Below, in pieces: positions 76 to 31,888 of a stretch of DNA of 64,000 nucleotides; position 1 is the stretch's first letter; every line of letters starts with the position of its first letter. This stretch comes from Calditrichota bacterium (GTDB lineage Bacteria; Zhuqueibacterota; JdFR-76; BMS3Abin05). Both the position numbers and the translations under genes were made by a program. The notes under the pieces were generated by a model. The model did not search any database and was not told the DNA's origin. It was given only the letters and a program-made list of their open reading frames with translations. The stretch spans positions 30,138 through 94,137 of the forward strand of contig JAADHR010000017.1 of the NCBI GenBank assembly GCA_013151735.1, given 5' to 3'.

Positions 76-232
76 GGTCGCCCTGAAACAGGAAGTGTAT
101 TCAGCCAAAATGAAATGATCCGGACAAACGTGAAACGAACGGGCCGCTTAGCCGAGGGTGTGGGCGGGACTGCCGCCAAAACAGCGCAATATGGGGGTCG
201 ATTCTGAAAGTGTTTCCTTGGGAGGAGAAGAC

Positions 233-3955: not shown

Positions 3956-4153
3956 AATGGTTCTAAATGAGTATATTTAATATTTATAATAAGTAATGCG
4001 CAGGTTTACTGCAATTACACAAACGGTGTTCAGTTCCAATTGCAATGGATGGGTGTTTGTCATGCGGTAAGTTGGCCGTGGCGCGTTGACTAATAAACAG
4101 CCTGAACAATTGCCGCAATGGATTGTGGTAAAATCTTCAACGGAGGACTGTGA

Positions 4154-5230: not shown

Positions 5231-5238
5231 GAAACGAC

Positions 5239-6759: not shown

Positions 6760-7353
6760 AATCCGTATTTCTCAAAGCAAACAAATAGTTGTGGTTTGGC
6801 TTTCTGCCGGACTGAAGAATAAACGGGTAGGGCAACCGGGCCCCCATTTTCATTTCCCCATGCAGAACCATTCGAATTCTCCCCCATTTTTCACTCACGC
6901 TTAAATTCTCAATTTCAAATAAGATGTTTCATAGAGAGACACGGCACATCAAATGTGACAATTCTTTCTAAACGAATTGAACATAAATAAGAATAATTAA
7001 CTAATGAAGAAATAACTCATTAAATTATAAGACATTATATTAATAACAAGTTAATATAATATCCCACAAAATAGGGATTTAAAAAAATTATTAATGTGTT
7101 CTGGTATGAATTTTGTGGTGATTTAGCGAAGAAAATACGAACATTTTTTTGGCGGAAAGTTCCGGATGCTCTTCGACAATTAGACACCTAAAACGAAAGA
7201 AAGCCTAAAAGAATGAGGTGTGGTTCTTGTTCTTGATTATCTTTTTAGGGCTTTCTTCCGATAATAATCAGGTAGTTAGAAAAAAGACATGAATCGGCAG
7301 GTAGTATTAAACTGCAAATTAGCTGATTTTATTAAAAAAGGGATTCAAATAAA

Positions 7354-10300
7354 ATGGATAGTTCATTTGCAAACCGGCGTGTTTTCATTTTATTGGCAGC
7401 CATTGTCTTGCTGTTTCAAATGAATGGAATGGCTGCTCCTTTGGGAGTCGAATCTCAGTCAAAAAATTGGCCACAAATGAGTAAAACCGCACAAAATGTG
7501 TTCGAGAATCAATCAAGCGAGTCTGTGACCGGCACCATTGATACCATTGAGGTGACCGGTGATACAACCGCGTTTCCCCGCGATCCGTCCAAAATTTATG
7601 TTATTGCAGATTATCTACCCAAGATTTCAAAAGAAGTCGCGAATATTAAAGTGCAAAGTTCCGGCTTTTTTAGGATTTTTACCCAGGTTTTAAATGATAA
7701 GGATCAGCATAACGAAAGCTTTTTTCTGCAAATTCGTTATCCGGATAGTTCCCTTATTAATGCATGCGATGCCAACCTGGGACCGTACAAGGTCGTTATT
7801 GATACGACCGCTCCGGATTCAGAAGATTCCCAAATCCGGTACGCAGGTACATTTTATTTCAAAAAGGGAATCAACACAATTATCCTGAATCATTATGCCA
7901 AAATTGCCGTTCGTTTTCCAATATTCTGGAATGGGAATACGGACAGTGTCTCGATTCATTCGAATCCTGAAAGCGTCCATTTTAAACAGGTCATTCTAAT
8001 AAAAGTAACCAATCCCTTTGATGCAGCGTTAACCTATTCCGCAAGTGCAGATACACTCATCGATGTGGGGGGGCAAATGGTGAAAGCCGTGAAAGAGGGC
8101 AGACCGTATTCCTATGTATTAAGGGTGAAAAATGTTGGAAAGGGCAGACTCATTCGGTTTAAAATAAAAGCGCTCATTCCCGATTCCACCACCTTTTTTA
8201 ATATTCGGCCTGCACCGGACACAACCCGAAACGATACCGTATTCTGGCAAATTGATTCTCTTTCTCCCGGGGCGGAGCAAACCATTTTGATTGATGCCAA
8301 GTCTTTTACGAATCTGGTTGTAACCCCTCATCGCCTTTTTAGCCGCGCCTGGGTTGAATCCAAATGCGACACCAATCTTGTCAATAATGAAGATTCCACG
8401 ATTGTTTATGCGTATAGTCCGTGTGATTTTTTTACCCCGGAAGCCCCGCAAATTCAAGCAAGTTCACAGTCCGTTTTTGAGAATCAAAGCCTTTTCATCC
8501 GGGTTCGACTTCCCAAACGGGTGATGGCCTGGGATTTACGGGTCCATTATGCGGACGGAACCGTCGATTCAAGTTACGGGGACGCGTTTATCCAGTCAAC
8601 CGGCAATGTGGCCGACCAGTGGTTGACTGTTCACCCTCGTTTCACGAATACGAAACTGTTAACGGCGGCGGATCACGAACAAATCGTGTTTGAGCTTTTT
8701 TCAACAGATTCATGCGGATATTCGAATGTGGCATACGATACGGTAACCGTAAATCGGGAGAAGTGCGATTTGGCCCTGAACTACACGGCTCAAACGGATA
8801 CGATCGTTCATTATCAGGGGGCGGATGTTCCTGCCGTGATGGAAGGAGAAAGCTATTCCTACAAAATTGATCTCACCAATACCGGGCCGGATACCGCCCG
8901 GAGTGTTCGGCTTTGGGTTATCCGGCCGGATTCTGTAACCTGGAGCAGTTTTGTGCCTTCTCCTCAGGTTTTAAAGTCGGATACGGCTTTCTGGACATTT
9001 GATAAAATGTCTCCCGGAAGTGACAGAGAAATTACATTTCAAGCAACGGTAGCGGACTCTATTCCTGTTTCCCCTATTCAATTGCTGAGCAAAGCCGGAA
9101 TACAGGCCAAAGCGGATACGAATCAGGCGAATAATATCGACAGTACACGGGTTCTGGCGTTTGATCGGTGTACATTTTTTACCCCGGAAGCGCCGCAAAT
9201 CCAGCTTGTGCCGAATTCGGTATTTGAAGGAGACAGCGCAGTGGTCCGCGTGCGCCTTCCCAAACGCGTCACCTGGTGGGACATTCGTGTGTACACGGTG
9301 GACGGCCGCGTCGATTCAAGCTACGGGGATGCGTTTATCCAGTCAACCGGCAATGTGGCCGACCAGTGGTTGACCATCCGGCCGAGTTTCACCAACACAC
9401 AGCTTTTGACAGAGGCAAATCAGGAACCCATTGTTTTTGAATTGCGCACGCAGGATGCTTGCGGACATGCGGGATTGGTGCGCGATACGCTTTTTGTAAA
9501 GAGAATTATTGAAAAATGTGATGTGAGCCTGAAATATACGGTTCATACCGATACCTCTGTGGTCTACCAGGGGAAAACGGTTCCTGCTGTATTGGAGGGC
9601 ACATCCTATTCCTACGAAATTATGGTTAGAAATGCAGGCCCGGACACGGCCCGACATGTCCGGATTTGGGCCACCCAACCCGACTCGGCTACGTTTAACC
9701 ATTTTTCCCCTGCTATTCAATATGTAAATGGCGATACAGTCTTTTGGGCTTTTGATAAACTGGCTCCATCGGAAACCGTTAATCTCACATTTTCCGCTCG
9801 CGTTTCAGATAAACTTCCGGCTGCTCCGGTTGAGCTTTTTAGCAAGGCCATGGTACAGGCGGATGACGATACGAACCAGGCAAACAATGCGGATAGCACC
9901 CAGGTGTTTGGATTCAATTCTTGTGCATTTTTCTCTCCGGAATCTCCTAAAATAGAGGTTTCACCGGCTTTTGTGGAAGTAGGGGATAGCGTTCAGGTAC
10001 GTGTCTGGCTTCCCAAGGGCGTGGTATCCTGGGATGTTGATGTCCGGTTTGTAAATGGAAAAATAGATTCCAGTTACGCCGATGCCTTTATCCGTCGTAC
10101 CGGAAATGTTCCGGATCAATGGATCACGCTCCAGCCGGTATTTACCGAAACACGGCTTATTACACGGGCGCTTCAGGAGGCCATTATTTTTGAGCTTCAC
10201 ACGCAAGATCGTTGCGGGAATCGTCAAACAGCTCAGGCTCGGGTTTTAGTGAAGAGCAGTAATGATTGTCTGTTGGATCGAAATGTTTTCAAGGCAGAAG

Positions 10301-10542
10301 TAGGGACTCCACTCGGAATACGATTTAAATTGAGTTCCAACCGCCGGGCAAGAATTGATCTGTACGATATTTCCGGATACCATATTATGAAAATTGTTGA
10401 AGGCGATTTTTCCGCCGGATGGAACACCTATCGGTGGAATGGCCAAATGCCAGATGGCAAGAAAGTTGGCAGCGGCGTGTATATTATTACGATTAAATCC
10501 GGCAATTTGAACTGTTGGAAAAAAGTAATTCTGGTGAGGTAA
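7354..10542 (+). CDS. Large secreted repeat protein with DUF11-type repeats and a C-terminal T9SS/FlgD-Ig-like sorting domain
   Basis: Signal peptide. Three tandem ~249-aa modules, each carrying a DUF11-like segment (EGESYSYKIDLTNTGPDTARSVRLW; EGTSYSYEIMVRNAGPDTARHVRIW). The C-terminal ~80 aa (RIDLYDISGYHIMKIVEGDFSAGWNTYRWNGQMPDGKKVGSGVYIITIKSGNLNCWKKVILVR) fits the type-A CTD pattern of Por/T9SS cargo. Confidence 0.7.
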   Translation: MDSSFANRRVFILLAAIVLLFQMNGMAAPLGVESQSKNWPQMSKTAQNVFENQSSESVTGTIDTIEVTGDTTAFPRDPSKIYVIADYLPKISKEVANIKVQSSGFFRIFTQVLNDKDQHNESFFLQIRYPDSSLINACDANLGPYKVVIDTTAPDSEDSQIRYAGTFYFKKGINTIILNHYAKIAVRFPIFWNGNTDSVSIHSNPESVHFKQVILIKVTNPFDAALTYSASADTLIDVGGQMVKAVKEGRPYSYVLRVKNVGKGRLIRFKIKALIPDSTTFFNIRPAPDTTRNDTVFWQIDSLSPGAEQTILIDAKSFTNLVVTPHRLFSRAWVESKCDTNLVNNEDSTIVYAYSPCDFFTPEAPQIQASSQSVFENQSLFIRVRLPKRVMAWDLRVHYADGTVDSSYGDAFIQSTGNVADQWLTVHPRFTNTKLLTAADHEQIVFELFSTDSCGYSNVAYDTVTVNREKCDLALNYTAQTDTIVHYQGADVPAVMEGESYSYKIDLTNTGPDTARSVRLWVIRPDSVTWSSFVPSPQVLKSDTAFWTFDKMSPGSDREITFQATVADSIPVSPIQLLSKAGIQAKADTNQANNIDSTRVLAFDRCTFFTPEAPQIQLVPNSVFEGDSAVVRVRLPKRVTWWDIRVYTVDGRVDSSYGDAFIQSTGNVADQWLTIRPSFTNTQLLTEANQEPIVFELRTQDACGHAGLVRDTLFVKRIIEKCDVSLKYTVHTDTSVVYQGKTVPAVLEGTSYSYEIMVRNAGPDTARHVRIWATQPDSATFNHFSPAIQYVNGDTVFWAFDKLAPSETVNLTFSARVSDKLPAAPVELFSKAMVQADDDTNQANNADSTQVFGFNSCAFFSPESPKIEVSPAFVEVGDSVQVRVWLPKGVVSWDVDVRFVNGKIDSSYADAFIRRTGNVPDQWITLQPVFTETRLITRALQEAIIFELHTQDRCGNRQTAQARVLVKSSNDCLLDRNVFKAEVGTPLGIRFKLSSNRRARIDLYDISGYHIMKIVEGDFSAGWNTYRWNGQMPDGKKVGSGVYIITIKSGNLNCWKKVILVR
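8563..8627 (+). repeat. Intragenic near-identical 65-bp segment, copy 1 (encodes DSSYGDAFIQSTGNVADQWLT)
   Basis: 63/65 nt identical to 9310..9374, exactly 747 bp (249 codons) downstream. The flanking sequence is much more diverged. Confidence 0.85.
9310..9374 (+). repeat. Intragenic near-identical 65-bp segment, copy 2
   Basis: See copy 1. A third, more diverged copy lies at about 10057-10120. Confidence 0.85.
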
Positions 10543-10543
10543 C

Positions 10544-13141
10544 ATGAAACGAGTGAATAGAATTACCAACGAGAAAACATCTGTTTTCAAAATTGCTTTA
10601 GCGATCGTTTTTGCGCTTGTGGTCAGTGCGATTGGAGGAAATTCCGTTGCACAGGTTCGTTCCGGTGTGGCCTTTTTAAAGATATTGCCAGGTGCTCGGC
10701 AGCAATCCATGTCCGGGAGTCTGACGGGGCTTTTGGATGAAGATTATGCCTATTATGCCAATCCGGCGGCCACAGGATTTGCGCGTGAGTGGCAGTATTC
10801 TTTAACCTACACGAAATGGATTACGGATATCTACAACATTTCATTAAATTATGGGCGGGGTTTGTCGCTTCCTTGGAACAACAGATCGCGCATCATGTTC
10901 GGGGTGAATTACCAGGGCGTAAAAGAATTTGACAGTTCCCGAGGCGCAACTCCACCGGCATCTGCCAGTGATTTGCTGGCCCTGGTCAGTGTGGGGTCGT
11001 CCTTTCCAAGATTCTCAAGGAATGTTTCATTTGGTATTAACGCGAAATACTTTCGTAGCAATTTGGCGCAGTACACCGCTAATGCCGTGATTTTGGACAT
11101 GGGGGTTTTGTACCGGACGCACCGATTTCATTTCCTGAATTGGAAAAATGGTTTGTTTAAATATGGTATTTTTTCTGCAGGATTGGCCGTGACCCAGTTG
11201 GGAAATTCCATGCGGTTTATCGATGTAGCCACACCGCTGCCGCGGACGTACCGTGGCGGTGTGGCCTTTTACACCGGGACTCATAACGGATTCCAGATTC
11301 AACTTTCGCTGGATGTTCGGAAAATCCGCGATGAAAAAACATCATTGAGCCTGGGTTCTGAAATTTCCCTTGGTAAGAGAATTTCCATCCGCGGCGGTTA
11401 CAATTTTCAAAATGCCCTTCTTAGTAAATATTCTTTCGGAATGGGAATTCGGCTGGACGATTACAGCACGGCTTTGAAAGATTTTCTGCCGGGGCGCAAA
11501 CACGCACTCAAATTTGATATTGCCGCCCTTCAAAATATGGATTTCTTCTCGAATGCTTCTCGGATCAGTGTAACCGATTATCCGATTGGTCCCGAAAAAT
11601 TTGAGTATCAAACACCCGGGAAGATTGAAACCTACACCACCGAAGACAGCGTTACCCTTCGCTGGCAAGTAACTCGCGACCCCGATCTTTTTGATGAGGT
11701 GCAGTACGGATTTTATCTGACAAAAGACAGCCTGAGTCTGGCTAATTATCTGAAAAAATTGGATCAAAAAAAGGTTGATCTCTCCCAAAAACCAGAAGAC
11801 GCCGTTGTGTTTGCGCTGACGCCCTCTGTGAAAATTCATGAAGGTAAGGAGCGGCGCAAATTTCGTGTGGAGTTGTCACCCCTGCCAATCGGAAATTATT
11901 TTTGGTCGGTTTGGGCAAGAGATGACGATGATCACATTCGGTTTGCAGTAAAATCGGGACAAAAAATTCAACATTTTAGAGTGATAGCCAAAGAGATTCC
12001 CGTTCCTCCGGACACAACCGCTGACCTGATGCTGGCCAAAACGGCTGCTCTTCCTCCGCTGGATGTAAATATTCATTTTCCGTTTGATTCGGCTCGATTG
12101 ACTCCCCGCGCAAAAGAAATGCTAAACATTCTTGGGATGGCTCTCAATTCCAAGGAGCTCCGATCCACGCACGTGGAACTGGGGGGACACACCGACAAAC
12201 GCGGATCTGCCGCCTACAATTTAAGGCTGTCTCAGCGGCGTGTCGATCGTGCAAAGGATTATTTGATTGCCGTACCGGCTGTGGATTCGTCCCGGTTAAC
12301 GGCCATCGGATACGGCGAAAGCCGGCCTCTTATAAAGAATGCCACAACGGAGGCAGAATTTGCGATTAACCGCAGGGTGGAAATTAAGCTGTCCCGTCAA
12401 CAGGGATCCGAAAATAGCGAAAAAGTGACCCGTCTTCCGGTTCCCAAAACGATTATGGCCGGAAAAGAATTTTCCTATAAAATTAATGTGAAGAATAAGG
12501 GGCCCCGGCCAGCCCGATCCATTTCGATCAAAGATAAGCTGCCCTCAGGGATAAAAATTGTAAGCACCTCTATTCAACCGGACTCTCTTTCGGGTAATCT
12601 GCTGTTCTGGAAGTTTGATTCCCTGGCTACGGGAGATTCTCTCGTTATCGTACTCAAGGCCAAAGCACCGGATTTCGTAGATAGAAATCCCAAACCATTC
12701 TTAAACAAGAGCAATGTGACGGCCATCAACGATACCTCCTTTTTTAATAATGTGGACAGCGTCTCTGTTCTTGTAATCGGAACACCCGACACAGCCGTGT
12801 ATTTCGGATTTGACAGTTCCAATGTCAGGCCGCAGGCCCGGAAGCTCTTGGAACAGTGGGCCAATTTTATTGAAGCCTCTCCCCGGATCCCAATCTGCAT
12901 TGAGGGACATACCGACAGCATCGGTTCCGACGCCTATAACATGCGTCTCTCCATTCGGCGGGCTAAGTCAGTGAAAAAATGGCTCATAACCTGGCTCAGA
13001 CAACACGCGGCTTCAGAAGTAAAAGAGGTCCATATTTACACCATTGGATATGGGGAAAGACGGCCCATTGCTACGAATAAAACAGAAGAAGGCCGGCAAA
13101 AAAATCGGAGAATTGTGATTCATCCGAGGCCGTGTAAATAG
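10544..13141 (+). CDS. Outer-membrane protein: PorV/FadL-like beta-barrel N-terminus fused to two OmpA-like peptidoglycan-binding domains and a DUF11 repeat
   Basis: N-terminus LPGARQQSMSGSLTGLLDEDYAYYANPAATGF resembles the GAR..MGGA...D.SA..NPAGL box of PorV/FadL-type barrels. Two OmpA_C domains (FDSARLTP...GHTDKRGSAAYNLRLSQRRV and FDSSNVRP...GHTDSIGSDAYNMRLSIRRA) are separated by a DUF11-like segment (KEFSYKINVKNKGPRPARSIS). Starts 1 bp after the upstream cargo gene. Confidence 0.7.
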   Translation: MKRVNRITNEKTSVFKIALAIVFALVVSAIGGNSVAQVRSGVAFLKILPGARQQSMSGSLTGLLDEDYAYYANPAATGFAREWQYSLTYTKWITDIYNISLNYGRGLSLPWNNRSRIMFGVNYQGVKEFDSSRGATPPASASDLLALVSVGSSFPRFSRNVSFGINAKYFRSNLAQYTANAVILDMGVLYRTHRFHFLNWKNGLFKYGIFSAGLAVTQLGNSMRFIDVATPLPRTYRGGVAFYTGTHNGFQIQLSLDVRKIRDEKTSLSLGSEISLGKRISIRGGYNFQNALLSKYSFGMGIRLDDYSTALKDFLPGRKHALKFDIAALQNMDFFSNASRISVTDYPIGPEKFEYQTPGKIETYTTEDSVTLRWQVTRDPDLFDEVQYGFYLTKDSLSLANYLKKLDQKKVDLSQKPEDAVVFALTPSVKIHEGKERRKFRVELSPLPIGNYFWSVWARDDDDHIRFAVKSGQKIQHFRVIAKEIPVPPDTTADLMLAKTAALPPLDVNIHFPFDSARLTPRAKEMLNILGMALNSKELRSTHVELGGHTDKRGSAAYNLRLSQRRVDRAKDYLIAVPAVDSSRLTAIGYGESRPLIKNATTEAEFAINRRVEIKLSRQQGSENSEKVTRLPVPKTIMAGKEFSYKINVKNKGPRPARSISIKDKLPSGIKIVSTSIQPDSLSGNLLFWKFDSLATGDSLVIVLKAKAPDFVDRNPKPFLNKSNVTAINDTSFFNNVDSVSVLVIGTPDTAVYFGFDSSNVRPQARKLLEQWANFIEASPRIPICIEGHTDSIGSDAYNMRLSIRRAKSVKKWLITWLRQHAASEVKEVHIYTIGYGERRPIATNKTEEGRQKNRRIVIHPRPCK

Positions 13142-16842: not shown

Positions 16843-16927
16843 CCGGTTGATTCGATTCGGATGGGATGATTTATAAAATGGAATGATTCCGTTTGGAATC
16901 GAGCAAAAAGATTGGAGATTCTGCCTA

Positions 16928-17905
16928 ATGATTGGTTTGGTCGGTCTTGGAAATATGGGATCAGCCATTGCACATGTAATGGCTTCAAACGGACACGCTG
17001 TGCTTGGATGGGAACACAACGCCCGTGTGGTTGAGGAAATCAACCGTAACCACACGAACACCCCATTTTTACCTGGTATTACATTGGATCCCAACTTAAA
17101 AGCGACCGGTGATCTGAAGCGGGTGTTTGAGACGTGTCCGGTTATTTTTGTGGCCATTCCATCGATCTTTTTTCAATCGGTGCTAAAACCCTTTTCAAAC
17201 AAGACCACCGGAAAGGTGTTTGTAGATTTGACCAAAGGGATTGACCGGGAGACGCTCTTAACCTCATTTCAAATGCTGCAGATTCTTTTTCCCGGCAACC
17301 AACATGTGATGCTGTCCGGCCCGTCTATTGCCAATGAGTTTTCCCGCGGTCTGCCAACCCTGGTTATGCTTGCCGGCGAAGACAAAAGCGGTCTTTTACA
17401 AATTGCCCGAATTTTGGAAAATGATTATTTTCGGGTTCGTTTTTCGGACGACACCATTGGCGTCGAATTGGGTGGAATCCTGAAGAATATTTATGCCATT
17501 GGTCTGGGAATTTTTGACGGACTGGCCATTGACAGTGTGAATTTCCGATCCTCTTACTTGACGGTTGCTCTGGAGGAAATTTCTCAAATAGGGGTGGCTC
17601 TGGGGGCTCGAAAGGAAACCTTCCTGTATCTTGCAGGGATGGGCGATCTGCTGGCGACATCCTTGAGCCAGCACAGCCACAATCGACGGATGGGCGAATT
17701 TCTGGCGCAGGGGCTTTCTCTCAAGAAAATCGAACAGAAAATGGGAGTTTTGCCTGAGGGATTTAATACGCTCAAGATGACGCTGTATCTTGCAGAAAAG
17801 CACCATTGTTCGATGCCCCTGGCGAGAGGGTTGTGGGATGTTATTCACGAGCGCCTGAGCGCCGAAACCTTTGTTCAGATGTTTATTAAGGACTTTGTCG
17901 AATAG
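16928..17905 (+). CDS. gpsA: NAD(P)H-dependent glycerol-3-phosphate dehydrogenase
   Basis: Rossmann motif GLGNMGSAIAHVMASNGH and a GpsA-like C-terminal domain. Start placed at the internal Met, which has a GGAGA RBS. Confidence 0.85.
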   Translation: MIGLVGLGNMGSAIAHVMASNGHAVLGWEHNARVVEEINRNHTNTPFLPGITLDPNLKATGDLKRVFETCPVIFVAIPSIFFQSVLKPFSNKTTGKVFVDLTKGIDRETLLTSFQMLQILFPGNQHVMLSGPSIANEFSRGLPTLVMLAGEDKSGLLQIARILENDYFRVRFSDDTIGVELGGILKNIYAIGLGIFDGLAIDSVNFRSSYLTVALEEISQIGVALGARKETFLYLAGMGDLLATSLSQHSHNRRMGEFLAQGLSLKKIEQKMGVLPEGFNTLKMTLYLAEKHHCSMPLARGLWDVIHERLSAETFVQMFIKDFVE

Positions 17906-17919
17906 ATTAAGGAGCGGAT

Positions 17920-19431
17920 ATGAAGAAAAAGGTGGTGTTGGCCATAGATTTGGGGACGACCGGGAATCGGGTAATTGCCTTTTCAAAAGAGGGGGACATT
18001 CTGGCCAAGTCCTATTATGAGTTTCCTCAGATTTTTCCGAAGCCCGGCTGGGTTGAGCACAATCCGATGGACATCTGGATGACCACTCACAAGGCTCTTC
18101 TGGATGTGGTGAGCTTGGTTGGATCAGAAAATATCGAGGCTATTGGCATTACGAATCAACGAGAGACAACCATTTTGTGGGATAGGAAAACCGGCAAGCC
18201 GATTTACAACGCCATTGTGTGGCAGTGCCGGCGGACGGCGTCGATGTGCGACGCCTTGCAGGAGCACGCAGAGTCGATCAAACAAAAAACGGGTTTGTTT
18301 CTGGACCCGTATTTTTCCGCAACCAAAATTAAATGGATTCTGGAAAATGTTCCGGGCGCCCGGGGAAAGGCGGTTTCCGGCGACCTGGCTTTTGGAACGG
18401 TCGACACCTGGATCCTCTGGAATCTGACGGGCGGAAAACAGCACGCCACCGAACCCTCAAATGCCTCCCGAACCCTGTGCTACAACATTCATTCACTTGA
18501 ATTTGATGAAGATTTGCTCCGCATTTTTGATATTCCGGCAGCGATTCTGCCAGAGGTGAAGGAAAGCGGGGCGATTTTTGGCCACACCACAAAAGAACTT
18601 TTGGGGCGAGAGATTCCCGTTGCCGGAATTCTGGGTGACCAGCAGGCGGCGTTTTTTGCCCACGGAGGCTGGCAGGAGGGCATCATTAAAAACACCTACG
18701 GCACGGGGCTTTTTGTGGTGACGTCCACGGGAAGCGACATCCCCAATTCCGGGAAATTGGTGAACACCATTGCCTGGCGAATCAATGGGAAAACAACCTA
18801 CGCGCTGGAGGGGAGTGTTTTCATCGGAGGAGCGGCCATTCAATGGCTGCGGGACGGCCTGGGACTTCTGAAATCAGCAGCGGAGTCCGAACCACTGGCG
18901 ACGTCTGTATCCGACACCGGAGGGGTGTATTTTGTACCGGCCCTGGCGGGATTGGGTGCGCCCTACTGGGATCCATCCGCCCGAGGAACCCTTCTGGGAA
19001 TTACCCGCGGAACGGGACCCGCCCATATTGTGCGGGCAGCATTGGAGGCACTTGCGTATCAGACCCGGGATGTGATTGAGGAAATGCAGCACGTGGTTGG
19101 CGGCCGGCCCTTTAAAAAGCTGGCTGTGGATGGAGGCGCGGCCAAAAATAATTTTCTCATGCAATTTCAGGCAGATATTTTGCCCATGCAGGTGGAACGG
19201 CCGGTCGTGACCGAAACCACAGCTTTTGGTGCGGCAGGCCTGGCGGGAATGACCCTCGGTTTTTGGTCGCAAGAGGAATTTCTGACGGTTCGTAAAATTG
19301 ACCGGACGTTCGATCCGGCCATGGACCGCCAAACCCGGGAAGCCTTTTATCGCAAATGGAAGGAGGCTGTCCGGCGGGCCTTGAATTGGGCCAATGCAGC
19401 GGAGGACCGTGCCTCCGGAAATGAAGGGTGA
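17920..19431 (+). CDS. glpK: Glycerol kinase
   Basis: VLAIDLGTTGNRVIAF, GTGLFVV and the FGGY sugar-kinase architecture. 503 aa. Confidence 0.9.
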   Translation: MKKKVVLAIDLGTTGNRVIAFSKEGDILAKSYYEFPQIFPKPGWVEHNPMDIWMTTHKALLDVVSLVGSENIEAIGITNQRETTILWDRKTGKPIYNAIVWQCRRTASMCDALQEHAESIKQKTGLFLDPYFSATKIKWILENVPGARGKAVSGDLAFGTVDTWILWNLTGGKQHATEPSNASRTLCYNIHSLEFDEDLLRIFDIPAAILPEVKESGAIFGHTTKELLGREIPVAGILGDQQAAFFAHGGWQEGIIKNTYGTGLFVVTSTGSDIPNSGKLVNTIAWRINGKTTYALEGSVFIGGAAIQWLRDGLGLLKSAAESEPLATSVSDTGGVYFVPALAGLGAPYWDPSARGTLLGITRGTGPAHIVRAALEALAYQTRDVIEEMQHVVGGRPFKKLAVDGGAAKNNFLMQFQADILPMQVERPVVTETTAFGAAGLAGMTLGFWSQEEFLTVRKIDRTFDPAMDRQTREAFYRKWKEAVRRALNWANAAEDRASGNEG

Positions 19432-19666
19432 CCCAAATCGATTTTGACAGGATAACAGGCCCTGGCTTGGGGGTTGTATCAAAAGTCCTTTTTTGAGAAT
19501 AAAATGAGTATTTGTTATTGCGAACCAAACGGACTAAAATTGCCCAAAATGTTTTCACTCCGATTTTTTATTGCAACTTTTCCTTAAAATTCTTAAATTG
19601 ACATCCGTTTTATTGGGACAGATCAAACAAATCCATCTGCGTGAGATCAAATCTGAAGGTATTTTT

Positions 19667-20431
19667 ATGAAGCTGCGACTGAAGATTTTTATCGGATTTT
19701 TAATTCTTGCGGTTGTTCTGACCATGGCCGAAATATGGTCCATTTACCAGGTAAACTCCATGCGCCTGTCGGTTCAGGAAACACTGGACGCAAATTACAA
19801 GGGGATTCAGGCGGCCCAACGCATGCTCCTTTCATTGAGAAACGAAAACGAGGCTATTTTGCAGCTCTTGCAGGGGAAATGGAAAGAAGGGCGCCGGCGC
19901 TTAAGCCTGGCCGATTCGGCTTTTCAGATCGATCTGAGGCGGGTTGAGAAACATAACCAGACAGACGCTAAAAGGACGCTTGTAAATTCCATCAAAAAAA
20001 ACTACGGTGATTTTCGGTTGCTCTGGGAAAAACCAATTGTTGGTACAAAAAGAGAAAGAAATTTGGACTGGTACGCCCGTCAGGTGATGCCAAAAGAAAT
20101 AAGGATCGAAGAATCGCTTCATCAAATCATTCGGATCAGCAACCGGGACATGTACAAAACGGGTATAAACTTAAAGAACAATGTTCATCATATCATTATG
20201 CCGGGTGTGGTGGCCATGCTGGCTGCCATCATCTATTTGGTTCTCTTCAATTTTTTTATTGATCATTATCTGCTTTCTCCCATTGTCAAAATTACGAAGG
20301 GGTTAAAAAATCTCCTGGATCAAAGACGACCCTTTGAGGTTGAAATTGAAACGGATGATGAGGTGGCGGAACTGGCATCGACCATTACGACTCTGGTCTC
20401 AAAAATGAACTACGGCGAGATTGAAGAATGA
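19667..20431 (+). CDS. Membrane sensor: TM, periplasmic four-helix-bundle-like domain, TM, HAMP domain, no output domain
   Basis: Start at internal ATG with a GAAGG RBS. Two TM segments flank a ~165-aa helical domain. The C-terminal ~50 aa (PIVKITKGLKNLLDQRRPFEVEIETDDEVAELASTITTLVSKM) has the HAMP heptad pattern. The stop overlaps the trkH start (ATGA). Confidence 0.55.
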   Translation: MKLRLKIFIGFLILAVVLTMAEIWSIYQVNSMRLSVQETLDANYKGIQAAQRMLLSLRNENEAILQLLQGKWKEGRRRLSLADSAFQIDLRRVEKHNQTDAKRTLVNSIKKNYGDFRLLWEKPIVGTKRERNLDWYARQVMPKEIRIEESLHQIIRISNRDMYKTGINLKNNVHHIIMPGVVAMLAAIIYLVLFNFFIDHYLLSPIVKITKGLKNLLDQRRPFEVEIETDDEVAELASTITTLVSKMNYGEIEE

Positions 20432-21873
20432 GACTTCACGTCATCTTTCGCTACAACGGGTATGTCCTTCTGTTAAATGCGGCTTTTTTATTTATTTCTG
20501 CGGGAATTTCGGCCGCAAACGGCGATGCTGCTCTGATCCCGTTAACCTACAGCGCCCTGTTGGTACTCCTTTTCGGCTTGTTCCCGCTTCTGTTTGTTCC
20601 CCCCATTAAGGACATCTCCAATAATGAGGGACTGGCGATTGTGGTGTCCGGCTGGCTGCTCTCATGTCTGGTAGGAACCATCCCCTACATTATTTGGGGA
20701 GGGGAATTCAGTTTCATTAACGCCTGGTTTGAAAGCGTTTCGGGCTACACGACGACGGGTTCCTCTATTTTGAATAATATCGAGGCCCTTCCTTTGGGGC
20801 TCTTGTTTTGGCGAAATGCCACCCACTGGATCGGTGGAATGGGAATTATTGTGTTTGTACTTTCCGTGTTGCCGTCAATGGGAGCCGCCAGTCGAATACT
20901 GTACCGCTCGGAAATGTCACCGGTGGCCATGGAGAATTTTCAGTATCGTACCAAACAAGCACTGAGAATTCTCTTGAGTGTTTACGTAGGGCTAACCGTT
21001 CTGGAAACGATCTTCCTCCTCCTGTTTGGGATGAATCTCTTCGATGCCGTAACGCACGCTTTTGCTACCATCGCAACCGGTGGATTTTCTCCCAAAAATA
21101 CCAGTATCGCTTTTTATCACAGTGTTTCCATTGAGCTGACGATTATTGTTTTTATGGTTCTTTCGGGAACCCACTTTGGATTGCTTTACATGGCCTTTTC
21201 GGCTCATCCCAAACCCCTGTGGAAATCGCCTGTTGTTCGGTACTACATAAGTGCCCTTGGCGTGGGTGTTCTGCTTTCCGCCATAAATATTCACGGATCG
21301 CATTTTCAGTCCTGGTGGCAGTCTCTGCGATATGCCGCCTTCCAAATCGTGTCAATTGGAACCTCCACAGGATTTGCAACTACCAACACGGCTATCTGGC
21401 CGCCTCTTTCCCAGTTGCTGCTGCTTTTTTTCATGATGCAATGTGCCTGTGCCGGATCCACATCCGGTGGAATCAAGGTAGATCGGATCGTGATTTTCAG
21501 TAAGGCATTTGTTCGAAGAATCAGGCAATTCCAGCATCCCAAAGCCATTCTCCCCATTCGAATGGGGGAGAAAAAAATCGGGGACGATGCCGTCGCCATG
21601 AGTGTTCTTTATATCGCGGTTTATCTGGGCATTCTCTTTGTGGCTACTTTGATTTTAACCGCCCTCGGAATGGATATTATTTCCGCATTCTCAGCATCGG
21701 CAACCACAATGGGAGGCGTCGGGCCGGGCCTGGGAACGGTGGGGTCAACATCCAATTTCGCCGCTTTGCCTGCTCTTGGAAAATTAACCCTCACATTAAC
21801 GATGTTATTGGGGCGTTTGGAGATTTTTGGTTTGATTATTTTCTTTATTCCGAAAACCTGGCGCCACGCGTGA
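20428..21873 (+). CDS. trkH: TrkH/KtrB family potassium uptake protein
   Basis: 481 aa polytopic protein with repeated M1-P-M2 units and selectivity-filter-like Gly motifs (SGYTTTGSS, ATGGFSP, TSTGFATT, SGGIKV). Confidence 0.85.
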   Translation: MRLHVIFRYNGYVLLLNAAFLFISAGISAANGDAALIPLTYSALLVLLFGLFPLLFVPPIKDISNNEGLAIVVSGWLLSCLVGTIPYIIWGGEFSFINAWFESVSGYTTTGSSILNNIEALPLGLLFWRNATHWIGGMGIIVFVLSVLPSMGAASRILYRSEMSPVAMENFQYRTKQALRILLSVYVGLTVLETIFLLLFGMNLFDAVTHAFATIATGGFSPKNTSIAFYHSVSIELTIIVFMVLSGTHFGLLYMAFSAHPKPLWKSPVVRYYISALGVGVLLSAINIHGSHFQSWWQSLRYAAFQIVSIGTSTGFATTNTAIWPPLSQLLLLFFMMQCACAGSTSGGIKVDRIVIFSKAFVRRIRQFQHPKAILPIRMGEKKIGDDAVAMSVLYIAVYLGILFVATLILTALGMDIISAFSASATTMGGVGPGLGTVGSTSNFAALPALGKLTLTLTMLLGRLEIFGLIIFFIPKTWRHA

Positions 21874-21955
21874 GAATTCGGTTCCTCCCGCAGCCCGATT
21901 AAGGAATTGCGGGGGGAATGGCTTTGCAGCAAACAGGTGTGTTCGGGAGGTAAAA

Positions 21956-22501
21956 ATGAATGCTTTTAGCGATCGCATGTGGCTCAGCCTGGAACGAACG
22001 GCCCGGTATGTGTTTTGGGCAATTGTGCTGCTGTTACTGTGGCAAATTCTTTCTGCCTATTCCCATTTGCCGGACAAAGTGGTCTCTCATTTTGACATCA
22101 CCGGAAAACCCAATGGGTGGATGAGTAAACAGGCCTTCCTTCGGCTTGATGTCTTTCTCGTGGGATTTCTGGCGCTTCTTTTTTATTTTTCCGGATTTAT
22201 TATGAACAAAATTCCAAACACGTTCATCAATCTGCCCAACAAGGCATATTGGCTGGCTCCTGAGAGGCGGGATAAAAGTCTGCGGGTCATCAACAGCTTT
22301 CTTTTGTGGTTTGGAAACGCCACCCTGATTTTTATCTTTGTCCTGCTGCAGGATGTGATTGACTACAATTTGAATCCTCAAAACTATTCTGCAGGCATGA
22401 ACGCCTGGACGCCGGCCCTTCTCTACCTCCTCTTCATTTTTCTCTGGACGGCGGGTTTATTTTTGAGATTTCGACGTCCCCAAAACAAAAAAGGTCTGTA
22501 G
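21956..22501 (+). CDS. DUF1648 (SdpI-like N-terminal domain) membrane protein
   Basis: PDKVVSHFDITGKPNGWMSKQAF matches the DUF1648 signature. Four predicted TM helices. Confidence 0.5.
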   Translation: MNAFSDRMWLSLERTARYVFWAIVLLLLWQILSAYSHLPDKVVSHFDITGKPNGWMSKQAFLRLDVFLVGFLALLFYFSGFIMNKIPNTFINLPNKAYWLAPERRDKSLRVINSFLLWFGNATLIFIFVLLQDVIDYNLNPQNYSAGMNAWTPALLYLLFIFLWTAGLFLRFRRPQNKKGL

Positions 22502-22610
22502 GAAATTCAGGATGGTATTGCTGTGCAGTTTAAACGTGGGTCTTAAAACACAATGTTCAGGTTCTGTGGAACGTGCCGGGGGCGTATGAACCGAAAATCG
22601 GGAGGAAAAG

Positions 22611-23393
22611 ATGAGTGAAACTATTCGTGTAATGCGCAAGGATGAAATCTGCTGGCTCACCCTGAACCGCCCGGAAGTAAAGAATGCGGTGGATGCCCAG
22701 ACTATGATTCGGCTGCGTGAAGAAATTGAAGCCTCCGAAAAAGACGGGTCCCGCGTGATTGTAATCTCTGGTAGTGAGGGGGCCTTTTCCAGCGGCGCCG
22801 ATATTAAGGCCGCATTCGCTGCAAACGTATCCCCGGAAGATGCCTACCGGATTATGATGGACGCCTACTCCCCCGCGCTTCTGGCGATTAAAAACAGCCC
22901 GCTGCCCGTTCTTGCGGCAATTGACGGCATTGCCGCCGGAATTGGGCTGAATTTGGCACTGATGTGCGATTTACGTGTGGCCTCGGAACGGGCACAATTT
23001 TCCGAAATATTCATTCACGTGGGGCTCATTCCGGATGGTGGCGGGACCTACACCCTGCCGCGGATTGTGGGGCTGGGCCGCGCAATGGAATTGGCCATGC
23101 TCGGCGAAACCCTGAATGCTGCCAGAGCGCTTGAAATGGGGCTTATCAACCGGATTTATCCCAATGCCCAGTTCCAAGAATCCGTGGAAGAATTGGCCAG
23201 ACAGCTAACCCGACAGGCCCCTCTGGCGCTCGCCCGGATGAAACGTGCCTTTTGGTCGGGATGGGAGGGTTCCTTTGAAGATGCCCTTGTGCGGGAGGCA
23301 GAGCTGCAGCGGGAGATTTTTTTGAGCGAAGACGGTTTTGAGGGATTCCGGGCCTTTCTGGAAAAGCGCCCGCCCAAATGGAAAACCCGGTAG
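22611..23393 (+). CDS. Enoyl-CoA hydratase/isomerase family protein
   Basis: Crotonase fold motifs (ICWLTLNRPEVKNAVD; GIAAGIGLNLALMCDLRVA). Confidence 0.85.
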   Translation: MSETIRVMRKDEICWLTLNRPEVKNAVDAQTMIRLREEIEASEKDGSRVIVISGSEGAFSSGADIKAAFAANVSPEDAYRIMMDAYSPALLAIKNSPLPVLAAIDGIAAGIGLNLALMCDLRVASERAQFSEIFIHVGLIPDGGGTYTLPRIVGLGRAMELAMLGETLNAARALEMGLINRIYPNAQFQESVEELARQLTRQAPLALARMKRAFWSGWEGSFEDALVREAELQREIFLSEDGFEGFRAFLEKRPPKWKTR

Positions 23394-28513: not shown

Positions 28514-28657
28514 TTTTTTTAGATAAAGTTCTTAAGTTGCCCTGTAAAGCAGCTATTGCTAAGGTGTTTTTGGAATATTTTGTACCCGGGTTGGGGATGG
28601 GGAGTTGAAAATTGTGATACAACGGATCGATTTGTATTTTTGAAAAGGATGATTGGA

Positions 28658-29641
28658 ATGAATGACTTCCTGCAAAATTTCCGAATGGCAAAATACAGAT
28701 TCCTCTTACGGCCGCGAGATTATCTAAAGCTCTCCCATTACGCCGGAAGCTCGCTTCGCAGAGATTTTATTGATGTGTTCAAGGAAATCAGTTGCACGGA
28801 AAATGAAGTCTCCTGTAAATCCTGTCCCAAAAAGGGTGAATGTGCCTACTATCACGTGATAGAAGGCGGGGTTAAAAAGGACTACGGTGATCTGGCCAAA
28901 CGCTTCCAAACGCCACCCAAACCCTTTGTTTTTGAACCTCCCCTGAGCCGAAAGACCTTCTACAGCATGAATGAGGATATTGCATTCGATCTTATTTTGA
29001 TCGGGAAGGCCCTTGAGTATTTTCCCTATTTTGTGGCCACCATGCGCAAAATCGGTGAGATGGGGATGGGACGAAACCGCGGAAAATTTACCATTCGAAA
29101 AATCTTGGGTATAAATCTGAAAACGAATTATGTGGTCAGTGAGTATTCGTTTGCGCCATCAGAGGAATCGTTCGACCGGGATATTTCTGTTTCTTTGGAG
29201 GATATCTACAAAAAGAATATCTGGAAAAACAACGACCCGCTGGGAGGCGTGGAAGTTACATTTTTGACCCCCTTGCGGATGAAGCGCGTGGGATACACCA
29301 ATTGGCATTTGTATTTTCGGACGCTGATTAAGAATATTCTGTCGCGTGTCTCAATCTTAAATTATTTCCACAATAATTATCCGGATTTGGTTGAATTCCC
29401 GGAGCTTGTTGAAAATGCCCGCAGTATTCGGATTTCAGAGGATAATTTGATCTGGGACGATTGGCGGAATCCCCGCAAGCGGGATGACTCAAACCACAAA
29501 TTGGGCGGCTACCTGGGCGACATTTCTTACACCGGGAATTTGGAAGAGTACTGGCCCCTGCTCAAAATTGCAGAAATCTTGCACGTGGGAAAAAATTGCG
29601 GGTTTGGAATGGGACGAATTCTGGTGGAAGCCAATAAATAG
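28658..29641 (+). CDS. Hypothetical protein with a Cys4 knuckle and two Gly-rich loops; possible orphan RAMP/Cas6-like RNA-binding protein
   Basis: Start at the ATG with an AAGGA RBS 8 nt upstream. The N-terminus (KYRFLLRP..LKLSHYAGSSLRRDFIDVF) resembles the Cas6 N-terminal pattern. Contains C-x6-C-x2-C-x5-C. Two glycine-rich segments (IGEMGMGRNRGKF and a C-terminal VGKNCGFGMGRIL) resemble the RAMP G-rich loop. Confidence 0.5.
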   Translation: MNDFLQNFRMAKYRFLLRPRDYLKLSHYAGSSLRRDFIDVFKEISCTENEVSCKSCPKKGECAYYHVIEGGVKKDYGDLAKRFQTPPKPFVFEPPLSRKTFYSMNEDIAFDLILIGKALEYFPYFVATMRKIGEMGMGRNRGKFTIRKILGINLKTNYVVSEYSFAPSEESFDRDISVSLEDIYKKNIWKNNDPLGGVEVTFLTPLRMKRVGYTNWHLYFRTLIKNILSRVSILNYFHNNYPDLVEFPELVENARSIRISEDNLIWDDWRNPRKRDDSNHKLGGYLGDISYTGNLEEYWPLLKIAEILHVGKNCGFGMGRILVEANK

Positions 29642-29793: not shown

Positions 29794-30480
29794 TTATAAA
29801 AATGTGCCCAAACCGTTCTGTTTTGTTTTTCGCCACATGCCTGCAATATCCCGCTGGTACGGGTGATTGAAAGTACCCGGCCAGGACTCAATGACCAGCG
29901 AAATTTTTTGAAAGTCACCCAATTCAAATAAACTTTCCAACAGGCCCAGAACGGCCCCCCAGTGGGTCGGGTGCAAATGAAGAATTTTCCTGAAATCCGA
30001 AATGGCACCGCGGAAATCTCCCATTTCCTTCCTGACCCATCCCCTGTAATAGAAATATCTTGTTTTGGGCTGGACCAGTCGGATGAGCTGATTGAGAAGT
30101 TTGCTTGCCTGCGTGAGAAAATAGGTGCGGTTCTCAGGAACATGGGGCCAGATTTGCGAATAGCGTAAAAACACAACGGCCAGGGCCAGCTGGTACCCCG
30201 GATAATCGGGTTCCCGACGCATTTTTTGGCGAATTTTGTAGATTCGTTTTCGAAACTGGACATCCAGTGTGTCCAATTCACCCTTTGCCGCAATTTTAAA
30301 TGTCAGATTGGAATGTCTGGAGAGCCGATGCAATTCCTGGATCGCCAGCGCATAAAAGGGCCGCCGCAATTGATGAATACCCTGAACCCTTTGCTCAGAA
30401 TTTTTGCTGAGAAGCAGATCCGTAGTTACGCCGATTGGATCCGAAAGATTAGCTTGAGTAAACGGTTTTTCCTGGGGCAT
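29794..30480 (-). CDS. Hypothetical protein, helical repeat (TPR-like)
   Basis: 228-aa ORF at the end of the minus-strand operon, overlapping the upstream gene's 3' end. No recognisable catalytic motifs. Confidence 0.45.
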   Translation of the reverse strand: MPQEKPFTQANLSDPIGVTTDLLLSKNSEQRVQGIHQLRRPFYALAIQELHRLSRHSNLTFKIAAKGELDTLDVQFRKRIYKIRQKMRREPDYPGYQLALAVVFLRYSQIWPHVPENRTYFLTQASKLLNQLIRLVQPKTRYFYYRGWVRKEMGDFRGAISDFRKILHLHPTHWGAVLGLLESLFELGDFQKISLVIESWPGTFNHPYQRDIAGMWRKTKQNGLGTFL

Positions 30481-31888
30481 GGCGGCGACTCATTTTTTCA
30501 AGAATTTTTGCATGGATTTGCAAAACCTCCAAAACCTGCTTCATCATGACCTTGGAGGATTCGTAATCGGGTTCGAATACGCTGAACCCGTAATCAAATT
30601 TTCGTTTTTCATTGTCTGGGCCGGCAAGATAATTCAGTCTCTTGTTTAAACGATTTAAAATACCGGACATCTCGTAAAAGCCCGTAAAGGGAAGAATTAT
30701 CCAGATCAGGCTGCGCGGCTTGTCCACATAAATCTGATCCAGTTCCCGGATTTCAGTCTGAATCGATTGGGTTAATTCGGCAACGGAAAGGTCAGGCACG
30801 CCCGTCTGTGTCCGAATGGCGATGAGTGAGAAGGATGACTGGAAACGCCTGGCTCGCCGAAACTCGCTTTCGACAAGTGAGAGAAAATCGTAGGGAGACT
30901 GAATAATCTGCTGCCAGAGGGGTCGTTTCCTGTCTCTGGATTCCTGCACCTCCCGGGTAACAGCCAGGGCCAGTTCAGCCATTTTTCTAATGTAATTCAG
31001 GGCCTGTAAGGTCCGCTGGTGCAGAAGCGCAAAAGGCATTTTATCCACGCTGATCAGGTACTTTGCTTGACCCGCCTCGCGGATCGGAATGTAAATGAGC
31101 CCCCGGTGTGACGCCTTTTTCCACTCGGAAAAAAGGGCGTCATTTTTGGATATGTCGGCTATGGAAAAGATTCTCTCCCCTTCTGAAATTCTTTTTAGAA
31201 AGGGGTTGGATTCCAGGGAAATAGCCTTCTTCTGGCCCGCCTCTTTTGCTTTTTCCGGAATCAGGGTGTGATCCTCTACCCGAAAGATTACCAATTCCTG
31301 CGCCCGGGTGATTCGGCTTACACTCTGGTAAAGGGCCCGGGTAAAATCCGGGCGTGATGTCAGAAACGATCGAAATATCTTGTACACCAGCGAAAAGGTG
31401 TATTCCTGGTTTCGAATCAACCGTTCCAGATTTTCAGATTTGATCCGCTGCTTTTGCAGTTCGCGGTGAAGCACCTCGGAACGTTTTTCTGACCGGGTCT
31501 GTTTAGTCTTCAGTGAAATTTGTTTGTCTTTTGTCTGGGTGTAATAAATGAAGAGGAGACCGAAAATGGCCAACATATCCAGAGTTGGCGGAACGGCATA
31601 CCGCAGCCAGCTGGTAAGCGGACCGTTTGGAAAATAAAAGAAAAAATAGTGAGAAATCAAAAAGGCTGGAACTGCGGCCAATGCCGCCCAGAAAAATTTG
31701 TCCCTTTTAAGAAAAAGCGCTCCATAGACCATCCAAACCATGTAGAGATGATAAGAACCCAAAACCCTCCAGAAATGATCCGGTGTTCTAATGAGTGAAA
31801 TCAACACAACGGACAGAGAGAATCCCGTGAGGAGAATCAAAATCTCCATCTGTGTGACAGATTTTTTTGGGGGTGCACTTGTTTTCAT
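30449..31888 (-). CDS. Membrane protein with a cytoplasmic GAF-like region and a degenerate (non-catalytic) GGDEF-like domain
   Basis: N-terminal TM helices. The C-terminal region (RFQSSFSLIAIRTQ...RSLIWIILPFTG) aligns to the GGDEF fold but lacks the GG[DE]EF motif. Confidence 0.5.
   Translation of the reverse strand: MKTSAPPKKSVTQMEILILLTGFSLSVVLISLIRTPDHFWRVLGSYHLYMVWMVYGALFLKRDKFFWAALAAVPAFLISHYFFFYFPNGPLTSWLRYAVPPTLDMLAIFGLLFIYYTQTKDKQISLKTKQTRSEKRSEVLHRELQKQRIKSENLERLIRNQEYTFSLVYKIFRSFLTSRPDFTRALYQSVSRITRAQELVIFRVEDHTLIPEKAKEAGQKKAISLESNPFLKRISEGERIFSIADISKNDALFSEWKKASHRGLIYIPIREAGQAKYLISVDKMPFALLHQRTLQALNYIRKMAELALAVTREVQESRDRKRPLWQQIIQSPYDFLSLVESEFRRARRFQSSFSLIAIRTQTGVPDLSVAELTQSIQTEIRELDQIYVDKPRSLIWIILPFTGFYEMSGILNRLNKRLNYLAGPDNEKRKFDYGFSVFEPDYESSKVMMKQVLEVLQIHAKILEKMSRRHAPGKTVYSS

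Follow-up and report, generated by a model that had tools for sequence, protein, structure and literature searches.

The subject of this report is a pair of overlapping genes in a 64,000-nucleotide stretch of the genome of a Calditrichota bacterium (assembly GCA_013151735.1, contig JAADHR010000017.1, positions 30,138 to 94,137; here called the window, and numbered from its first letter). The upstream gene (19667-20431, + strand) encodes a protein of 254 residues, hereafter the partner, which resembles a receptor without an output domain: a first transmembrane (TM) helix; a periplasmic four-helix bundle; a second TM helix; and a HAMP-like domain. The downstream gene, trkH (20428-21873, + strand), encodes a 481-residue TrkH-type K+ channel subunit, a member of a distinct partner-linked clade. 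An earlier note on this DNA (the original prediction) had claimed that two such genes overlap by ATGA, and direct reading of the sequence confirms the overlap at 20428-20431 (+ strand). The junction is ...GAAGAATGAGAC..., in which the partner stop codon TGA (20429-20431) overlaps the TrkH start codon ATG (20428-20430). The arrangement implies translational coupling, which is typical of stoichiometric subunits.

The partner start codon is preceded, at a distance of 7 nucleotides (nt), by the Shine-Dalgarno-like sequence GAAGG (19655-19659, + strand), and every partner homologue begins at the M-K/G-L-R-x-K of the 254-residue form. This start is preferred on both grounds, and a longer open reading frame (ORF) with a TTG start at 19571 was rejected. 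The window protein is identical to NCBI GXO76_00870, a "hypothetical protein" from a Calditrichaeota metagenome-assembled genome (MAG).

A near-obligate gene pair

The partner and TrkH genes form a near-obligate, translationally coupled pair. An alignment of four TrkHs encoded directly 3' of partner genes served as query in a scan of 185,579 species, one genome each. This returned 487 TrkH relatives, of which the best 80 (51-93% identity) were analysed. At 78 of these 80 loci a partner profile identified a homologue encoded on the TrkH strand and upstream of the channel gene; at 76 the two genes directly adjoin. A metagenome scan with the partner alignment yielded another view of the linkage: TrkH lies directly downstream at 78 of 78 loci with room downstream, among 80 recovered. 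The same linkage is seen at loci L001-L007. The ATGA overlap recurs at 28 of the 80 species-genome loci, and most of the other gaps between the two genes measure -1 to +25 nt. (At locus L065, 7736-11440, two tandem TrkH paralogues come after the partner.) The original prediction was to be given up if the pair proved not to be conserved together in other genomes; these counts show it kept in both scans, well above what would be expected.

Clustering of about 1000 neighbouring ORFs around the 80 loci found no conserved third gene. The partner and TrkH alone are conserved across loci, and the next neighbour family occurs at 20 of 80. The hosts represent at least six phyla: Calditrichota; Desulfobacterota/Syntrophales; Bacteroidota (Bacteroidales); Ignavibacteriota (Melioribacteraceae); Acidobacteriota; and Glassbacteria. 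Across these phyla the pair is flanked by unrelated genes. Among the hosts are at least one isolate, Perlabentimonas gracilis, and a MAG that has been placed in the cultured species Melioribacter roseus. Over 115 loci the pairwise divergences of the partners correlate with those of the TrkHs (r = 0.78), and the partner evolves about 1.2 times faster.

The partner profile was also used in a filter-free search over 1.84 billion representatives, with clusters at 50% identity, which recovered 180 partner clusters at E <= 1e-30. The best 150 matches are, with few exceptions, 240-270 residues long, and nearly all lack kinase domains (HisKA/HATPase). Fusions of partner to TrkH were found neither among these 150 nor among the best 120 TrkH matches. 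To judge from these sequences, the partner family is stand-alone by design.

The partner and its histidine kinase relatives

Hydropathy places TM1 at about residues 7-29 (19685-19753, + strand), within a predicted helix that spans residues 3-68, and TM2 at about residues 178-200 (20198-20266, + strand), opening with M178-P179-G180. The periplasmic part is therefore about 148 residues long. The original prediction had called for a two-TM protein with a periplasmic helical domain of about 165 residues; the two TM helices stand and the length does not. The periplasmic part itself (about residues 30-177; 19754-20197, + strand) is a four-helix-bundle sensor, by virtue of family-level matches to 4HB_MCP_1 and of fold matches. 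The HAMP-like domain (about residues 201-250; 20267-20416, + strand) comprises an AS1 helix with P205, a connector at 220-231, and an AS2 helix from D231-E232.

An AlphaFold2 (AF2) monomer model of the partner, made with 18 homologues, has a predicted local distance difference test (pLDDT) score of 84. It contains helices at residues 3-68, 72-96, 100-121, and 133-219, the last of these unbroken through TM2; the connector, 220-231; and a final helix, 232-253. The best match among solved structures is the NarQ sensor-TM-HAMP fragment (5JEF/5IJI), and further fold matches are to the four-helix ligand-binding domains of Tar, Tsr, and PcaY.

The domain assignments draw on the family as a whole. The window partner scores 22.3 bits against 4HB_MCP_1 (PF12729), for which the cut-off is 27. 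That model matches 37 of 38 diverse family members, with a best E of 1.3e-13. At the level of the family the partner has a 4HB_MCP_1-type sensor, with the predicted antiparallel four-helix fold lying between two TM helices. The HAMP assignment likewise relies on family evidence and not on the protein's own Pfam score, since a scan of the window partner with the Pfam HAMP model (PF00672) gave no match at E < 1. This model matches 14 of the 38 family members (best E 3.9e-5). The approximately 50 residues that follow TM2 fit the HAMP layout: AS1 with its proline; the connector; and AS2 starting with Asp-Glu. The hallmarks P205, D231, and E232 do not vary among 145 distinct stand-alone sequences, and conservation of L236 reaches 94%. 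Moreover, the region aligns column by column with the canonical HAMP domain of histidine kinase relatives, one of which (at locus L025) matches PF00672 at E 1.8e-14. The partner family profile also matches the TM2 and HAMP region of Tsr (E 0.006) and the HAMP domain of Af1503 (E 0.27). The proposed HMM scan for HAMP and 4HB_MCP domains thus leaves a HAMP-type fold in place at family level, and the objection that the protein might lack one fails.

No other recognizable domain follows. Pfam and NCBIfam scans of the partner found no HisKA, HATPase, MCPsignal, or GGDEF/cyclase domain, in agreement with the earlier claim that it has no kinase, methyl-accepting chemotaxis protein (MCP), or GGDEF output. 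The protein stops at residue 254, after AS2 of the HAMP domain, and has no MCP signalling domain; nor does it have the HisKA and HATPase_c pair of a sensor histidine kinase. Because these defining output domains were tested for and are absent, it is neither an MCP nor a kinase. Databases name family members variously as "hypothetical", "CHASE3 domain-containing", "MCP four helix bundle domain-containing", or "methyl-accepting chemotaxis protein", and no NCBIfam model claims the family.

The same kind of sensor and HAMP domain is found in a second setting. Histidine kinases of about 600 residues carry it, followed by PAS (in some), HisKA, and HATPase domains; these proteins match the partner profile over about 250 residues at E 1e-35 to 1e-41. 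In all six informative contexts the kinase gene lies at a K+ uptake locus, four of them trkA-trkH and two kdpABC. (Two further kinases, on contigs too short to show gene context, stand outside this count.) At L025 (kinase at 3365-5203) the order is sigma-54 regulator, kinase, split trkA, trkH. The order at L090 (2000-3829), L092 (1519-3414), and L176 (877-2757) is kinase, one or more regulators, trkA as two genes, trkH. At L091 the genes kdpA-kdpB-kdpC precede the kinase (7001-8878) and a KdpD that has the N-terminal part only; L093 reads sigma-54 regulator, kinase (3771-5582), kdpABC, and again an N-terminal-only KdpD. The sensor family is thus specific to K+ loci. No description of these kinases at K+ loci was found in a limited search of the literature.

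One of two similarly arranged Syntrophales-type loci brings kdp-type genes next to the pair itself. At L039 (4239-7633) KdpD (897 residues; Pfam KdpD, E 1e-97) and a 234-residue ORF, presumed to be KdpE, lie directly upstream of partner-TrkH. L040 (2096-5508) has ORFs of the same sizes and order (903 and 234 residues); the domain scan covered the L039 kinase.

Two sets of conserved residues can be distinguished. A periplasmic core is common to the stand-alone and kinase forms: N43, Y44, S46, E58, R59, D61, S62, N96, T98, E102, Y113, Y136, and N158. Other residues are conserved in the stand-alone form only: F11, M17, L18, A21, G22, S25, and E28 in TM1; and M178-P179-G180 at the start of TM2. 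Indeed, P179 is present in 100% and G180 in 98% of the 145 stand-alone sequences; among eight kinase relatives, P179 is found in none and G180 in one. Such a grouping of stand-alone-specific residues within TM1 and the opening of TM2 fits intramembrane contact. We read these patterns as suggesting one sensor family devoted to a K+-related signal, whose stand-alone form may be adapted in its membrane helices.

The linked TrkH clade and trkA

The channel protein of the window belongs firmly to the TrkH family. It scores 185 bits against Pfam PF02386 (E 2.5e-54; cut-off 27) and matches NCBIfam PRK10750 over its full length (residues 1-479 of 483). It aligns end to end with Vibrio parahaemolyticus TrkH (3PJZ; residues 3-481, E 3.9e-75), and 4J9U matches at about E 1e-75. 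All 119 clade members have the selectivity filter glycines, G111, G219, G315, and G432, and conservation of the intramembrane gate loop (D3M2), G343-S-T-x-G-G-x-K350, is 98-100%. With both elements conserved throughout, these proteins are working pores, and their pore and gate are intact.

The clade is also distinct. Its TrkHs share 30-38% identity with those linked to TrkA and with the E. coli protein, and twenty positions that are at least 93% conserved within it differ in all five TrkA-linked TrkHs compared. The most striking of these differences flank the gate loop and are invariant in the clade: Q338-C339-A340 (21439-21447) replaces an I/F-G-G hinge, and D352 (21481-21483) replaces a mostly hydrophobic residue. 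In V. parahaemolyticus TrkH the gate loop governs gating, and the channel without TrkA is mostly open, with an open probability of about 0.7 (PMC6987127). A channel that is mostly open when alone needs some closing partner.

The V. parahaemolyticus residues that contact TrkA are T175/R177 and H377/R379, with R379 forming a salt bridge to TrkA (PMC6987127). The 119 clade members retain these unevenly. The His-Pro of the TrkA-contacting D3-D4 loop is nearly invariant (H370 96%, P371 99%). The position equivalent to R177 holds arginine in 63% and arginine or lysine in 71%; that equivalent to T175 is variable; and that equivalent to R379 is variable as well (R in 29, H in 24, A in 21, and N in 15 of the 119).

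Neither trkA nor ktrA was found in the 64-kb window, by phmmer with E. coli TrkA over all ORFs or by Pfam on 41 window ORFs. This agrees with the original prediction, which had made much of their absence on the premise that an RCK gene normally lies next to TrkH. The premise fits five operons seen here: all five canonical TrkHs seen in the same lineages (at L025, L041, L090, L092, and L176) are directly preceded by trkA. The partner thus holds the operon slot that trkA has elsewhere. The premise does not fit E. coli K-12, in which trkA (3.436 Mb) and trkH (4.033 Mb) are unlinked and about 600 kb apart. Absence of trkA from 64 kb therefore says little. Moreover, related loci do carry it. The same phmmer search over ORFs of L001-L087 found TrkA at L025 and L041 alone, in each case directly before a second, different TrkH, forming a canonical trkA-trkH operon within 10 kb of the partner-TrkH pair. 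At 105 loci the sequence reaches 1.5 kb or more upstream of the partner, and in one of them, the metagenome locus L107 (2-2480), trkA lies directly upstream of it; the order there is trkA-partner-trkH, and the TrkA has 458 residues (E 1e-87 to E. coli TrkA). Genomes that bear the pair can therefore also encode TrkA.

A proposed receptor-like subunit for a K+ channel

In the accepted picture, bacterial Trk/Ktr channels are pores whose gating comes from nucleotide-binding RCK rings on the cytoplasmic side, and HAMP domains pass signals on to kinases, chemoreceptor tips, cyclases, or phosphatases. The partner-TrkH pair suggests a third logic, in which K+ flux is controlled by a periplasm-facing sensor. 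We lean modestly toward the view that the partner is a periplasm-sensing, receptor-like subunit that modulates TrkH gating within one membrane complex. From gene linkage and conservation we infer direct gating by the sensor, and with it physical contact between the two proteins, the direction in which regulation runs, and the kind of signal that is read.

Such a mechanism might run as follows. The two genes would give rise to one membrane complex, in which a TrkH channel of the distinct clade is joined by the receptor-like accessory subunit. The latter presumably is a homodimer, like other 4HB-HAMP receptors, bound to the TrkH dimer in the membrane. Its four-helix bundle would read a periplasmic signal tied to K+ supply, ionic strength, or osmolarity, and the signal would shift TM2 and the HAMP bundle. 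Having no enzymatic output, the partner would have to act laterally on TrkH, through its TM helices, its membrane-proximal HAMP domain, or both, and so change the open probability of the channel. The complex could then serve as a fast, post-translational counterpart to the transcriptional control that the histidine kinases with the same sensor probably exert at trkAH and kdp operons.

Several findings weigh against this proposal. The window partner's own 4HB and HAMP scores fall under the Pfam thresholds. Two of the 80 close TrkH relatives, at L021 and L043, have no partner, and at L033 (8399-11440) a 247-residue ORF with no Pfam match lies between partner and TrkH. Linkage and congruent divergence are expected of any stable operon. 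Finally, the window copy and its relatives of 72-75% identity have replaced the polar core of the sensor (E58R, R59N, D61N, S62E, N96H, T98Q, E102K, and N158S; residues 58-62, 96-102, and 158, encoded at 19838-19852, 19952-19972, and 20138-20140), while keeping the TM and HAMP signatures. In this lineage, therefore, the sensed signal may differ, or sensing may have been lost.

Other explanations have to be weighed against a modulatory subunit. The partner might replace TrkA altogether, leaving this TrkH clade gated by the transmembrane sensor only, with no cytoplasmic RCK ring. Such a replacement would account for a window that has no trkA, for 104 of the 105 loci with at least 1.5 kb upstream that have none directly upstream, for the partner's occupation of the slot held by trkA in five canonical operons, for the variable equivalent of the salt-bridging R379, and for the remodelled gate hinge. 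It is harder to reconcile with the trkA-partner-trkH order at L107, with the TrkA encoded in the pair-bearing genomes L025 and L041, with the 96-99% retention of the His-Pro in the D3-D4 loop, and with R or K at the R177 equivalent in 71%; and the unlinked trkA and trkH of E. coli show that distance between the two genes is no sign of loss. We regard replacement of TrkA as unlikely. The same doubt extends to the proposal in its boldest form, in which the clade would be a receptor-operated K+ channel: an output-less 4HB-TM-HAMP dimer would respond to K+ or ionic conditions outside the cell and would itself open or close TrkH, with no RCK ring involved; this, too, seems doubtful. Alternatively, the partner might signal to another protein, such as a cytoplasmic kinase, a cyclase, or TrkA, with TrkH an operon neighbour or a flux-reporting co-sensor. 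A HAMP domain usually hands its signal on to a module that follows it, genes for histidine kinases and response regulators are found close to the pair at many loci, and transporter/sensor co-sensing pairs are established in other systems. Yet no third gene is conserved with the pair, every member ends about 5-10 residues past AS2 with no conserved docking tail, and adjacency to TrkH is near-obligate, with nothing comparable seen for any kinase. A target other than TrkH is, on balance, rather improbable.

It also could be that the partner does not signal at all, being instead a factor for assembly, stability, or membrane targeting whose receptor fold is a relic of a histidine kinase sensor. The window lineage, which lost polar residues of the sensor core and kept its TM and HAMP signatures, looks as it would under this explanation, and the stand-alone-specific conservation does sit in the TM helices. 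Family-wide, however, E58, R59, D61, S62, N96, T98, E102, and N158 are at least 87% conserved and are common to the kinases, and the HAMP proline and Asp-Glu signatures are invariant. Conservation of these periplasmic polar and HAMP residues is an argument that most members still sense and relay, and a non-signalling role has in our estimate only a slim chance of being correct. The least probable explanation by far is that the upstream ORF is a pseudogene, a truncated MCP or histidine kinase that lies beside trkH by chance, as names such as MCP, CHASE3, or MCP four helix bundle protein in some databases might lead one to suppose. Length is constant at about 250 residues across 180 clusters, down to 24% identity; start and stop positions and many residues are conserved; and pairing with TrkH is strict. 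Constant length, conserved residues, and strict pairing are incompatible with decay, and effectively refute this idea.

The partner-TrkH pair can be set beside several known systems. Like TrkH-TrkA (3PJZ/4J9U; E. coli Trk), the pair includes a TrkH of full length that has the extra helices at its N terminus, all four filter glycines, and the gate loop, and its partner gene, like trkA, lies immediately upstream of the channel gene. It differs in that the partner is a two-TM, periplasm-facing, receptor-like protein whereas TrkA forms a cytoplasmic nucleotide-binding RCK ring, and in that its TrkH falls in a separate clade with the Q-C-A and D substitutions at the gate hinge. With the receptors NarX/NarQ and Tar/Tsr the partner shares N-terminal architecture, fold, and the HAMP proline and Asp-Glu signatures. 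Those receptors continue into a kinase or MCP domain, whereas the partner ends after AS2; moreover, its AS2 has neither the usual glycine after Asp-Glu nor the F-N-x-M motif, both of which the kinase relatives keep. The histidine kinases with the same sensor have a homologous sensor and HAMP domain and an apparent K+ uptake theme, but they pair with response regulators, and their output is phosphotransfer, probably to transcription. KdpD/KdpE, which controls kdpFABC, similarly provides a membrane sensor dedicated to K+ uptake; KdpD, however, acts on transcription as a kinase and its sensor is built differently, and the partner has no kinase.

For lateral action there is an analogy in SRII-HtrII, in which a two-TM HAMP protein is coupled helix to helix to another membrane protein. 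There the signal enters the HAMP protein and proceeds to a kinase, whereas here the flow would be toward the channel. AmtB-GlnK offers an analogy of another kind, in that the gene for the regulator is co-transcribed with that for the channel which its product gates, although GlnK is cytoplasmic. Searches of full-text literature turned up no description of a HAMP/4HB partner of TrkH, and no curated family for the pair came to light; within the reach of these searches, the earlier sense that the arrangement had not been described is upheld. The pair suggests a K+ system of the Trk type whose receptor-like accessory subunit had not been described before.

This sensor domain has been attached to K+ uptake three times: to TrkH; to kinases of trkAH operons; and to kinases of kdp operons. 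It is therefore a concrete candidate for a module that senses extracellular K+ or ionic strength. Were the partner to gate TrkH directly and without an RCK ring, an ion channel would become a new class of HAMP output, and the Trk/Ktr/HKT superfamily would gain a regulatory subunit of a new type. The pair turns up often in lineages that are anaerobic or live in sediment (Desulfobacterota, Bacteroidales, Calditrichota, Ignavibacteriota, and Acidobacteriota), and its occurrence in Perlabentimonas gracilis and in the MAG assigned to Melioribacter roseus makes it experimentally tractable. A typical family member would be a better experimental subject than the diverged window copy.

Surroundings of the pair

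The genes for NAD-dependent glycerol-3-phosphate dehydrogenase and glycerol kinase, in that order, lie directly upstream of the partner gene (16883-19431), and the close relatives L001 and L007 keep the order of dehydrogenase, kinase, and pair. The spacer between glycerol kinase and partner is 235 nt long and holds a low-confidence candidate sigma-70-like promoter, TTGTTA-17-TAAAAT (19512-19540, + strand), proposed from a consensus scan with 9 of 12 matches. No riboswitch or other leader was indicated, there being no Rfam match in 18500-22700 at E <= 1. After trkH comes a gene for a 181-residue DUF1648 membrane protein (21956-22501), which is absent from that position in L001, L004, and L007.

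Elsewhere in the window, 13 kb from the pair, are sugar ABC transporter genes together with genes for trehalose-phosphatase, MscS, and trehalose-6-phosphate synthase (158-6759), and a gene for a Na+/Ca2+ exchanger lies near the pair. The neighbourhood has a flavour of osmoadaptation; the neighbours named are shared with close relatives only, and lie outside the conserved pair. Bacteroidales loci have other company. At L048, L053, L056, L058, L060-L062, L064, L072, and L076 a divergent gene set lies about 1-3 kb upstream of the partner, on the opposite strand: an ECF sigma factor; an anti-sigma-like membrane protein; and two LTXXQ-motif (Spy/CpxP-like) periplasmic proteins, as identified by reading of their sequences alone. 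The set looks like an envelope-stress unit, and its ECF sigma, anti-sigma, and LTXXQ genes are confined mainly to the Bacteroidales loci.

Tandem Repeats Finder reported no tandem array in the 64-kb window. Two large consecutive proteins with DUF11 repeats (1062 and 865 residues; 7354-13141) are likely cell-surface proteins, since the second ends in an OmpA domain. Two adjoining ORFs of 228 and 479 residues (29794-31888, - strand) have no Pfam match at E <= 1e-5. A Cas6-like gene (28556-29641; PF10040, E 5e-18) follows rlmN, and the rlmN-cas6 order is found also in L001.

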